From: a virus
Lineage: Duplodnaviria; Heunggongvirae; Uroviricota; Caudoviricetes
Virus record (IMG/VR): IMGVR_UViG_2537562172_000006
Direction: 5' to 3' (one strand)
DNA length: 64,000 bases
The position numbers are program-made. Positions 53,001-56,000 of the stretch are shown piece after piece. The number at the start of each line of letters is the position of its first letter. Position 1 is the stretch's first letter.

Positions 53001-56000
53001 GGCATCCTTGGATCGGTGAACTTATACACGCCTCTACCCAGTCTTTTTATTGTCGCTCCAAAATCCTTTTTAATTAAGCGTCCTGTATAGTTACTCATAC
53101 TTTGGTTGTTATATCTCTCTCCAGTATCTTGATATATCTGGTTTATCCATTCTTTAACGCCAAACTCCTCATTTTTAAACTTTGACGCTGAATATAGAAT
53201 TTTTTTGTACACATCTGTTTTAGATGAACGAACAGCATCCTCATACTCTCTTCTTAGCCTACCTTCAGCATTCTCAACTGATTTTTCAATTGATTTATGG
53301 AAGATTTCAGAATTAATAACTTTGCTAGAATCAACAATGGCAGCCTCAGCAGCCTCCTTGCAAAGGAGGTGAGTAAAATATGGAAAGCCATTGCTTATAT
53401 CAACTATTTGATTTTTAATTTCATCGTCAAACCTTAGTCCTAATCCTTTTTCTCCCAGACTGATTATTTCTAACAGATGCTTTTCATCAACCCCTCCCAG
53501 ACAAACCTCATGCAGGCATCTGTTAACAGATTCATGCCCTGCCGTAAGGCTTTTACCATCCTTAGAAATTCCCACAAGCAATACTTTCAATTTCGAATTA
53601 AAATCGCTCAACTGCTTTATAAACTCTGCAACAGCTTTCTTTATATCGTCTTCTAATACATCAAACTCATCTATAACGAGAACCCCCTGAATTATTCCAA
53701 TAGTCGCTGCTGCCTTTCGAGGAGTTATTTCATCTCGTTCTATAGTTATTTTTTCTTCATAACCCACGTTACCAGTAAAGAAACTAAAAAACTTTGCAGA
53801 TAAGCCTGCCTTTATTACTTTCTCTTCCTTATACTTTTCCGGGTTTTGTGAGATAAATATTGCACATTCAGAGACGATATCTTTAAATTTAGTGTTAGTA
53901 TCACACTTCACATTAAAATACTCACCTAAAAGTACGTTGTATTGCCTGCCACCAATAACTGTAGCATTAGCTAATGAGCTCTTTCCGATTCCTCTATCAC
54001 CATATATCATACAATGCCTACCAGGAACCGTTAAATTATCTAAAATACTTCTCACCTCAGTATCTCTCCCCTTTAAATACTCAGGATTAGATATAGGAGT
54101 TGAAGGAGTATAATATTTATTCACATCATCTTTTTTTGCAAATTCTTGTGCATACTCTGCAAAAATATTCACATACACCTCCTTTTCATTAAAAATGATT
54201 AACCTGCCACTTTCTGTTTTGCAACCGTTACAAACTTCTTACGAGACTAAATATTTACGCATATCAAAGGAATGTTACGCGCGCTCATATCCATCCCACG
54301 CTATCCCATTTTACATGAACATAGGTAAAAACCCGCAACATCAGCATCAACAAAAAGCCTTACCCGTAGGCTTAATGTTTGGCTTGGCTGTAGCCTTACC
54401 GAACGCGCCGCTCACCGTCGTGGCCTGTCCGGTTTCTTCCACTGATACGGCCTCACATCATCATGCTGGTGGCGTTCCTGTTGCAGAACAACGGAAACAG
54501 GCGCTGAACACCTGTTAATTTTGCCTGCTGGTGGTCTGATTCCGGCAATGCTGCGGATCATCTCCAGCATATCGGCTTCGGTGATGGTCATGATTTACAC
54601 CTTAGGAAATCTTAGGGGGCTGGTTGACACTTTCCGGCTTAAGACCTTAATAAATCTTAATATCGCGGGTTGACACACTTGACACTTTTCGGGAAAAACC
54701 TTAACAAAACTTAACCTCCCCTGGCATTTCTAAGCATGGCAACTTGACACTTTTCGCGATTTTTTCGGCTTTTTGACGTGGTAAATCTGGCGCAAAGCCA
54801 GTAACGGCGGGGTTTACAGCGAGGTTGACACTTTTTCGCGTTCAGAGTGTAAAGTGTCAACCCGGCAGACGGCCTGACTTGACACTTTTCGCGAATTTTA
54901 CGGTCATTAATGGGATGATTTTTCCCACTCAGCCAGGGCGTTTAGTCCGGCTTCACTCCAGTTATCCAGCTCATCGGGACAATCACCTGCAACATAGCAG
55001 AGCTCACAACGCAGCATACGAATTGCCAGCCTGGCATTTTCCCGAAAATCATACTGCTCAAAGTAATATTGCCCAGCATAATCCTCAAGGCAGATAGCAC
55101 CATCATCAAGAAATTGCACTTCACAGCATAATTCCCCGGCTGCATCCTGCACACGCTGCTGTATGTCATCGTCCGTTACTGGTGCAGGGATTTTACCGTC
55201 TCTGGCCTTAACTGCTTTCCAGAACTCGCCCCACGTCATTTCCAGCGTTCTTTCTGGCCACATTTCAGAAACGGTGTCTTTCCCCTGTGCTGGTGGGCTG
55301 TTCCGCTGCTCTGTCGCCTCCACATCAATTTTTTTGCCAGACATGATCACTTCGCCTTTCTCGATCCAGTCGTAAACTGTCTGGCGGCTTACGCCTTTGT
55401 GTTTAGCATATTCTGCTTTACTCATTAGCATATTGCCCTCTCATGAAATAACGTTGTGTGCTGTCTGCCCCTGTGACTTCAGCTTGTTTTCAGCATATGC
55501 CTCGAACACCGTCACCCACGCATCACCATCGGCAGTAAGATACGCTCCGATGTGGCGAACGGACTTAACCAGAAATTTTCCGGTGAACGTGGTCGAGTTT
55601 TTGGAGATAACACTGGGCGCTGTAGTATTAGTCATGAGGATCGACGATGCTCCTGAAAACATTCCCTGAGGCAGTTCGATCACATCACTACACCGTATAT
55701 CTCCCCGCAACGGGCATTTAAAACTGACGGTAAAAGGCTTTATCCATGTTGGTTGGCCTATTAATTCATAAGGTTCAATTTTCTTTATTTTCCCCAGTTC
55801 CAGTGATGAATTATCATAAAGACGAATGCGATCTGGTAACATAATAATGCCTACCCCGCTATATCCTTTCTGACGAATAATCGCTTTCGATAAACTTCGC
55901 ACAGCCATAGCCAGCGAACCTATATCAAGGTAAACCAGTGGAATATCTTCAGGTAAAACCAGGTTATCACTGACCGAGGATTCAATAATTTTATCTGGAT

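Follow-up and report, generated by a model that had tools for sequence, protein, structure and literature searches.

The 64,000-nucleotide stretch of DNA analysed here (the window; IMG/VR record IMGVR_UViG_2537562172_000006) is Escherichia coli chromosome that carries a satellite island adjoining smrA (51573-52136). In this island a 315-bp intergenic gap directly adjoins the 3' end of a gene for a 174-amino-acid helix-turn-helix (HTH) protein, and the gap is filled by an array of two interleaved families of short repeats. Judged from sequence comparison, the array probably consists of binding sites for the 174-residue protein. To the further reading, that the gap is a multi-site docking platform for this protein and thereby the packaging-recognition site of the satellite (pac- or cosB-like), we assign a probability of roughly 0.55. 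This packaging reading draws on several properties of the repeats (enrichment, conservation, linkage to the HTH gene and independence of the replicon), on the occurrence of the motif in the cosB position of related satellites, on synteny with rppA and on the location of the array at the junction of island core and cargo.

A two-family repeat array follows the HTH gene

Repeat finding and pattern searches located plus-strand TTGACAC heptamers starting at 54624, 54670, 54679, 54744, 54825 and 54879, with the tail (T)TTTCG(CG), and a single inverted copy (GTGTCAA at 54854-54860), which reads GGTTGACACTTTACAC on the minus strand. The six direct copies and one inverted copy listed in an initial annotation of this DNA were all recovered, with the qualification that the copy at 54670 has no TTTCG tail and is overlapped, at a 9-nt offset, by the copy that follows; degenerate TTTACAC copies at 54594 (plus strand) and 54847-54853 (minus strand) can be added to them. 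Seven of the eight TTGACAC/GTGTCAA heptamers of the whole window fall inside the 315-bp gap (Poisson P ∼1e-20). With up to two mismatches allowed, the 13-mer gave seven matches where 2.3 were expected, a number that none of 100 shuffles reached. The sole heptamer outside the array (TTGACACTTTTAT, 62786-62798) lies in an open reading frame (ORF) near the regulatory end of the island and probably arose by chance.

The second family, CCTTARNAAANCTTA (units of CCTTAnnAAAnCTTA), begins at 54600, 54645 and 54699, the three positions originally reported, and has no other match in the window (0.19 expected). The location first given for the array, 54600-54885, was right, while its bounds were slightly too narrow, as the full gap runs from 54592 to 54906. 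Three short ORFs overlap the array (54521-54673, plus; 54711-54860, minus; 54825-55097, plus), but a 96%-identical relative breaks them with 1-nt and 9-nt indels. The array is therefore non-coding, as had been proposed. Its GC content is 46%. A promoter and terminator scan made no sigma-70-like promoter call and no terminator call within it, an Rfam search of the array returned no RNA family, and, compared by eye, neither repeat family fits the consensus of IHF, DnaA, CRP or LexA.

Between the repeats lies a conserved core that occurs once. Part of it, CCAGTAA(C/T)GGC, recurs in arrays of the E. coli, Raoultella/Klebsiella and Pantoea types, invariably flanked by a gene-proximal group of repeats on one side and a gene-distal group on the other. 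The direct copy nearest the HTH gene and the inverted copy form a pair just past the stop codon in all relatives, and the composite of TTGACAC and TTTACAC variant seen in the inverted copy recurs in the arrays of related satellites that are linked to cos (cohesive-end) sites, described below.

Array and HTH gene are conserved together

The array was found in 166 of 5426 complete E. coli genomes (∼3%), at 78-96% identity and always in this island type. Its repeat cores and unique core appear to be under purifying selection: a comparison of 34 distinct E. coli-type arrays put conservation at 97% or more for the repeat cores and for most of the unique core, with variable spacers, among them the spacer within the inverted pair. 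Comparison with related islands, recommended at the outset, showed the repeats and the HTH gene occurring together across genera. Both are present in a fixed layout in E. coli, Raoultella, Rouxiella, Pantoea, Buttiauxella and Scandinavium, and in the last five the AAGTGTCAA/TTGACACTT sites recur, with the layout unchanged, 3' of homologues that are only 49-63% identical. Read in gene orientation, the stop codon is followed by a forward site, a reverse site (with the TTTACAC variant in E. coli-type arrays), another forward site, the core (...GCC(G/A)TTACTGGnTTTG) and more forward sites, these interleaved with TAAGnTTTnnTAAGG units and the conserved element GCTTAGAAATGCCAGG. The CTTA-N6-CTTA units occur in arrays of this layout from several genera; they were not seen in the cos-linked arrays that were read.

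Scanning IMG/VR for the inverted pair returned 102 contigs, 53 of which have the HTH gene adjacent to it. The remaining 49 are close in number to our own chance estimate for an 18-base pattern; at least three of them are cos-linked relatives. The module of HTH gene and array also occurs in islands that carry another set of hijack genes (the O104:H4 type) or none; it always comes after the genes for PerC and the 65-residue protein p65 and before the cargo, which identifies it as a core function of the satellite family. In the window and in island L005 homology extends through the last CTTA unit, and in the O104:H4 island (L002) it breaks off ∼60 bp earlier. Further searches were negative: the array had no blastn match among 50,697 phage records, scans of IMG/VR for the conserved core with two patterns were dominated by chance matches and yielded no phage counterpart with extended similarity, and a literature search found no description of the HTH-array module.

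The 174-residue protein has a TerS-type DNA-binding domain

Homologues of the 174-residue protein are encoded in Escherichia, Citrobacter, Pantoea, Serratia, Rouxiella, Raoultella, Klebsiella, Enterobacter and Yersinia. Up to residue 41 these homologues hardly vary (MLMSKAEYAKHrGVSRQTVYDWiaKGevvmSGxKIDVEATE), and further on they diverge to 35-60% identity. An AlphaFold model (AF2; mean pLDDT, the predicted local confidence score, 88.8) comprises a winged HTH at residues 5-44 (helix-helix-strand-helix, pLDDT ∼90), a disordered linker at ∼45-60 and an alpha/beta domain at 63-166. The constant HTH and diverging C-terminal domain would fit a fixed DNA site read by a protein with a variable partner-binding domain.

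The PHROG 57 'terminase small subunit' (TerS) profile matches residues 1-42 only (E 3.7e-7). The same region matches Pfam HTH_17 and, more weakly than PHROG 57, the PHROG Cox-like excisionase/repressor and excisionase/regulator families, so that it is a winged HTH of the Nu1/MerR/excisionase type. It aligns over ∼60 residues, at 28-29% identity, with the TerS of Serratia phage BZS1, which is annotated as Nu1, and with that of phage phiNP. A fold search found relatives of the HTH only, the best being Pukovnik Xis and BldC, two proteins whose binding to direct repeats is cooperative. The N-terminal resemblance to Nu1 put forward in the initial annotation thus stands at the level of the profile and of the BZS1 alignment, but does not extend to lambda Nu1 itself: a sequence search of the PDB at E≤1 returned no match to any chain, including lambda Nu1 and RppC. 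The body of Nu1, with its central oligomerisation domain and C-terminal part that binds the terminase large subunit (TerL), has no counterpart in the 174-residue protein, and tblastn of the protein against phages gave no match.

In cos-linked relatives the motif occupies the cosB position

Five IMG/VR loci (L186, L194, L198, L220 and L237, with L146, L226 and L231 as variants of these) encode proteins of 186-194 residues whose first ∼40 residues are homologous to the HTH of the window (hhalign probability 96%, residues 1-44 only). The L194 protein is a full-length PHROG 57 TerS (E 2.7e-23; residues 1-180). Because these loci share p65 with the window island (43-61% identity), and several share the primase (46-77%), we take them as members of the same satellite family. 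Here a TTGACAC/TTTACAC array lies upstream of the HTH gene and is preceded by GGGTCC(T/C)...GGGCATTGCGCGCCGCG...CTAGCTATGAAnTTTTGAATTTG. This cosQ-cosN, with its spacer, is near-identical to that of two lambda-like phages, Serratia phage BZS1 and Citrobacter phage phiNP; in the BZS1 record GCATTGCGCGCC is annotated as the left cohesive end and a Nu1-type terS starts at nt 75. When phages and satellites are aligned, the phages have GGTAACAGGTAACA...GGTAACA right before terS, and the satellites have TTGACACTTTACACTTGACAC at the identical position followed by further copies. The recognition helices differ in parallel, SRQ(T/A)(V/L/I)Y.W in TTGACAC-linked proteins versus SRKTVT.W in phage TerS. 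Since the phage cosQ-cosN is kept, the repeats in the cosB position are replaced and the HTH protein follows, the alignment provides strong indirect evidence that TTGACAC repeats bind this HTH, and that they act as cosB in these relatives.

In the phages themselves, three GGTAACA direct repeats lie between the 12-nt cohesive end GCATTGCGCGCC and the terS start (BZS1, L241 1-75; phiNP, L242 2890-3001) and constitute a compact candidate cosB. At the L186 locus (IMGVR_UViG_2597490017_000006, 7700-9600), tail sheath, tape measure and baseplate genes are found within 1.2 kb of the cosQ-cosN-TTGACAC array and its 194-residue HTH protein, and the larger ORFs scanned over ∼9 kb downstream included none recognised as TerL, portal or capsid. 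This locus may be either a satellite beside a prophage tail module or an element that encodes tails without heads.

Comparison with known packaging systems

Phage-inducible chromosomal islands (PICIs) that encode Rpp keep the helper's cosQ and cosN and replace cosB (PMC6739421, PMC9026076). In strain CFT073 (L244 2497-3340) we located cos1 of EcCICFT073 (GGGTCCT...GTTACGGGGCGGCGACCTCGCGGG) in a 163-bp gap upstream of rppA, and cos2 as an inverted second copy ∼200 bp downstream of rppA, in agreement with the published account. The window island resembles this system in several respects. In each, the satellite encodes a small protein that joins a TerS-like winged HTH at its N-terminus to a different C-terminal part; the HTH gene occupies the position of rppA, last in a PerC-led operon before the cargo; and the satellite has its own recognition sequence, unlike that of the helper, so that the same logic of a new terminase specificity can be proposed. 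There are also differences. RppA of CFT073 shares only 9/25 HTH residues with the 174-residue protein, RppC was found neither by sequence nor by fold, and the protein is homologous to none of RppA, RppB and RppC. Rpp islands have a lambda-type cosQ-cosN and a proposed single R3-like site upstream of rpp, whereas the window island has no cosN, at least seven sites over 270 bp and its array downstream of the gene; directly upstream of the HTH gene there is no cosQ-cosN, and the preceding gene ends 9 nt before the HTH start codon. The presumed helper, finally, has Terminase_2/Terminase_6N enzymes, as opposed to the lambda Nu1/gpA enzymes for Rpp. The comparison with Rpp is accordingly not supported in the form first given: the protein is no Rpp homologue, and the array follows its gene, whereas Rpp islands have their site ahead of the gene and next to cosN. 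The array system would be a variant of known satellite packaging logic. The cos-linked relatives show the pattern of Rpp islands, with cosQ and cosN retained and cosB exchanged, but reach it with a protein family unrelated to Rpp.

The BZS1 and phiNP systems share with the window island a homologous HTH and short repeats that would be bound beside the packaging start, but the island lacks cosQ and cosN and its protein lacks the Nu1 body. A further parallel is offered by the pac site of phage SPP1, in which pacL, pacC and pacR are bound by the TerS G1P, and by the Staphylococcus aureus pathogenicity islands (SaPIs), which encode a TerS with its own pac site. On the packaging reading, common to these and the window island would be a ∼270-300 bp array with TerS boxes flanking a unique centre, and a recognition subunit supplied by the satellite to a headful helper. 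The 174-residue protein differs in that it is related neither to G1P nor to SaPI TerS by sequence or fold, and its C-terminal domain is not a ring-forming TerS core.

A Rac-SA53-like prophage is the likely helper

The first ∼47 kb of the window are occupied by a Rac-SA53-like prophage. Four island proteins, encoded by genes in 55441-58150, are 54-74% identical copies of proteins of this prophage, which makes it the likely helper. The 345-residue (baseplate-hub-like) and 111-residue island proteins match prophage genes at ∼7602-8950, and the 223- and 197-residue proteins match the two halves of a 430-residue DUF2213/PHROG 6216 head protein of the prophage (18136-19428). The copied genes suggest capsid or tail hijacking of a Rac-SA53-type prophage. 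For the O104:H4-type island, a 380-residue capsid-like protein had no phage homologue and so points to no helper for that variant.

The prophage TerS belongs to Terminase_2/PHROG 51 and its TerL to Terminase_6N/PHROG 2, which we take to be the types usual in headful (pac) phages. If the helper is headful, 'pac-like' suits the array better than 'cosB'. We infer that this terminase would be the target of redirection. The helper terS region was said at the outset to be without the array motif, and this held: no TTGACAC-type site and no word of at least 13 nt in common with the array is found in the prophage. Words of 9-12 nt common to both were set aside as chance matches; two of them (a 10-mer and an 11-mer) lie upstream of the helper terS, in opposite orientations and at positions that vary between islands.

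Proposed mechanism and competing explanations

The packaging reading can be put as a sequence of steps. After helper induction the late island operon (ProQ-PerC-p65-...-HTH) would be expressed, and the winged HTH, with its recognition helix SRQTVY, would bind the (G)GTTGACAC(T)TTTCG sites, namely one inverted pair beside the gene end and direct copies that flank the conserved core. Several protomers, possibly joined by a second factor on the CTTA-N6-CTTA units, would wrap the DNA into a nucleoprotein complex; p65 is a speculative candidate for a second DNA-binding partner. The variable C-terminal alpha/beta domain may then recruit the helper terminase (TerS and/or TerL of the Rac-SA53-like phage), and TerL would cut nearby, possibly at the conserved core, so that capsids are filled with island DNA instead of phage DNA. 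Our guess that the core (54786-54822) is a cut, bending or architectural site is prompted by the repeats flanking it as pacL and pacR flank pacC in SPP1.

Several findings weigh against this reading. Lambda-type cosN (GGGCGGCGACCT, up to two mismatches) gave only chance-level matches in the window and none in the island, and BZS1/phiNP-type cosN (GCATTGCGCGCC) is absent from the window. No cosN of these types is thus shared with the helper, and the core CCAGTAACGGC has no confirmed phage counterpart. With neither a cosN nor a word of 13 nt or more in common with the prophage, the sequence points to no defined cut site. The array is downstream of its gene, unlike the order cos-terS or cos-rpp, and homology to the cos-linked proteins is limited to residues 1-44. 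Residues ∼60-170 form an orphan alpha/beta domain with no match to TerS oligomerisation domains, TerL-binding domains or Rpp, and excisionases, Cox and BldC, which act as regulators at direct repeats, share the HTH fold just as well. The CTTA-pair family is not accounted for. Islands bearing the module carry different hijack gene sets or none, and any helper contact must therefore be adaptable. Of the original proposal of a site for a satellite packaging factor, what stands is a conserved cis-element tied to a TerS-type HTH, with a motif that related satellites have in the position of cosB. The window array itself is not a cosB adjoining a cosN.

The fold of the HTH, together with its HTH_17, Cox-like and excisionase matches and the cooperative direct-repeat binding of Pukovnik Xis and BldC, would also suit a regulatory or architectural array, in which the 174-residue protein coats the repeats as a Cox/Xis/BldC-like factor, ends the late operon and controls the 59-residue ORF and the cargo, with no part in packaging. 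The array lies exactly where the variable cargo starts, and its last CTTA unit (54600-54616) contains, on the minus strand, the AAGGTG ribosome-binding site of the 59-residue ORF. As RNA, the inverted pair at the gene end can form a hairpin (∼-19 kcal/mol, z = -2.4) with UUU after it, possibly a weak terminator. Multiple direct repeats, some in tandem 9-11 bp apart, are common to the array and to the P2 Cox/cox-box and BldC/Xis systems, whose proteins belong to the same winged-HTH superfamily. Those proteins, however, are single domains of ∼50-90 residues that act at promoters or attachment (att) sites, whereas the array is far from att and has no promoter or terminator call. Its repeats are 46-81 bp apart over 270 bp and flank a core, atypical for an operator; the array is the same whatever the cargo and is truncated at different points among islands; and in the relatives motif and HTH sit between cosN and a TerS-type gene, a packaging and not a promoter context. 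We therefore regard a purely regulatory array as unlikely, while giving it serious weight; regulatory and packaging roles are not mutually exclusive. The same boundary between conserved core and variable cargo (an nSTAND NTPase, AAA+DUF4435 or others), with the excisionase-type fold, could mark a recombination site at which defence cassettes are swapped and the Xis-like protein acts as directionality factor. This is very improbable: the homology break differs between islands, giving no fixed crossover point, no second recombinase is encoded beside the array, and the att site and integrase of the island are kilobases away.

A second replication origin (resembling P4 crr) or a plasmid-type partition site, bound by an initiator or a centromere-binding protein, was the alternative named initially. 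Iteron-like direct repeats in a non-coding region would suit it, as would the ribbon-helix-helix-like p65 that travels with the module, and P4, as mentioned in a 2018 ISME paper, has another cis region for replication that is several kb away from the origin. The island, however, already has a canonical origin at 59385-59730, directly downstream of the primase gene, with at least eight AACTGTCTACC iterons in both orientations and 11-bp tandem pairs around an AT-rich stretch (∼30% GC). Origins of E. coli PICIs are described as having this arrangement of iterons and AT-rich stretch beside the primase gene (PMC6092414). Where the primase is only 55% identical, islands have another iteron, ACTGTTCAC, in seven to eight copies and lack CTGTCTAC, yet their seven-copy TTGACAC array is unchanged. 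As the iterons switch with the primase type and the array stays constant, the array is independent of the replicon, and it does not adjoin and co-vary with an initiator gene or include an AT-rich region as an iteron origin would. No ParA/ParB-type gene is present, and the array repeats are widely spaced, whereas centromere repeats of the omega/ParG type are contiguous. These observations effectively rule the origin or partition alternative out, and we give it next to no probability.

Returning to packaging, a broader formulation, which we hold only tentatively and as somewhat short of an even chance, is a modular packaging-specificity system of enterobacterial PICIs, in which a portable TerS-derived HTH that reads TTGACAC is fused to different C-terminal adaptors. 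It covers two forms, one with a stolen lambda-like cosQ-cosN and one without cos, in which the 300-bp array and core capture the terminase of Rac-SA53/Stx-like phages.

Organization of the island

Apart from the helper terminase genes, the features in Table 1 belong to the island, all genes of which are on the minus strand. Read from the right end of the window towards the array, the order is primase, ProQ/FinO, PerC, p65, the 197-residue, 223-residue DUF2213 and 111-residue proteins, the 345-residue baseplate-hub-like protein and the 174-residue HTH protein, followed by the 315-bp gap, the 59-residue ORF and an nSTAND-type NTPase. The 59-residue ORF follows the array in most E. coli islands of the 174-residue-HTH type (73-98% identity). 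The gene that accompanies the HTH module most consistently, across genera and in the cos-linked relatives, is p65 (43-100% identity).

An island in ETEC1747 is 98% identical and shows the remainder of the element past the end of the window: DUF4222, Icd-like and AntA/B genes, a small HTH regulator and a tyrosine integrase adjoining abgR. PICI-type satellites were recognized by an integrase, an AlpA-type regulator, a primase with adjacent origin, a length of ∼10-15 kb, helper-related hijack genes and the lack of a full virion gene set. The window island has a primase with adjacent origin, PerC, ProQ and copies of helper genes, and ETEC1747 supplies the integrase and HTH regulator; by gene set the island classifies as a Gram-negative PICI-type satellite. 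EcCIMP1, a PICI mobilised by phage Kapi1, has a related island backbone without the HTH-array module.

The cargo slot after the array (52973-54178) holds an nSTAND1 NTPase that looks defence-like. In the O104:H4 strain C227-11 (L002 6703-8659) the slot holds an AAA ATPase and DUF4435 pair instead, which is presumably PARIS-like.

Table 1. Coordinates of the array, its parts and associated genes in the 64-kb window.
Feature	Position	Strand	Remarks
Whole intergenic array	54592-54906	.	315-bp gap between the 174-residue HTH gene and the 59-residue ORF
Second-family unit CCTTAGGAAATCTTAGG	54600-54616	+	two CTTA half-sites, 10 bp apart
Repeat copy GGTTGACACTTTCCGG	54622-54637	+	repeat finding, pattern search
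Second-family unit CCTTAATAAATCTTAAT	54645-54661	+	repeat finding, pattern search
Two overlapping tandem copies GGTTGACACAC / TTGACACTTTTCGGG	54668-54693	+	9 nt apart
Second-family unit CCTTAACAAAACTTAAC	54699-54715	+	repeat finding, pattern search
Conserved single element CCTGGCATTTCTAAGC	54720-54735	.	GCTTAGAAATGCCAGG in gene orientation; also in Raoultella- and Scandinavium-type arrays
Repeat copy TTGACACTTTTCGCG	54744-54758	+	repeat finding, pattern search
Non-repeated conserved core ATCTGGCGCAAAGCCAGTAACGGCGGGGTTTACAGCGAGG	54786-54822	.	includes CCAGTAACGGC; occurs once
Repeat copy GGTTGACACTTTTTCGCG	54823-54840	+	pairs inversely with the copy at 54847-54862
Inverted copy GGTTGACACTTTACAC	54847-54862	-	TTGACAC, then TTTACAC variant
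Repeat copy ACTTGACACTTTTCGCG	54877-54893	+	nearest to the stop codon of the HTH gene
59-residue ORF	54412-54591	-	strong ribosome-binding site; directly after the array
174-residue HTH protein gene	54907-55431	-	525 bp; directly adjoins the array, which is 3' of the gene
p65 (65-residue protein)	58181-58378	-	ribbon-helix-helix-like by eye; no Pfam or PHROG match
D5_N/DUF5906 primase	59755-61560	-	origin directly downstream, at 59385-59730
Prophage terminase genes	21643-24307	-	TerL 21643-22971; TerS 22961-24052; 83-residue TerS-like ORF 24056-24307

Implications

Among such satellites, a packaging mechanism has been worked out for the Rpp/lambda-cos type only. Should the array and the 174-residue protein be the packaging signal, they would represent a second, unrelated solution to satellite packaging, and, should the helpers be headful, a pac-type counterpart of Rpp in E. 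coli. They would also explain why cargo accumulates at the array junction, where anti-phage defence cargo directly adjoins the array. With a two-part cassette of the 315-bp site and the 525-bp gene, any plasmid could then be transduced by E. coli prophages of a common class. The three contexts in which the same HTH and motif occur amount to a natural experiment on how terminase specificity may be rewired by domain swapping.

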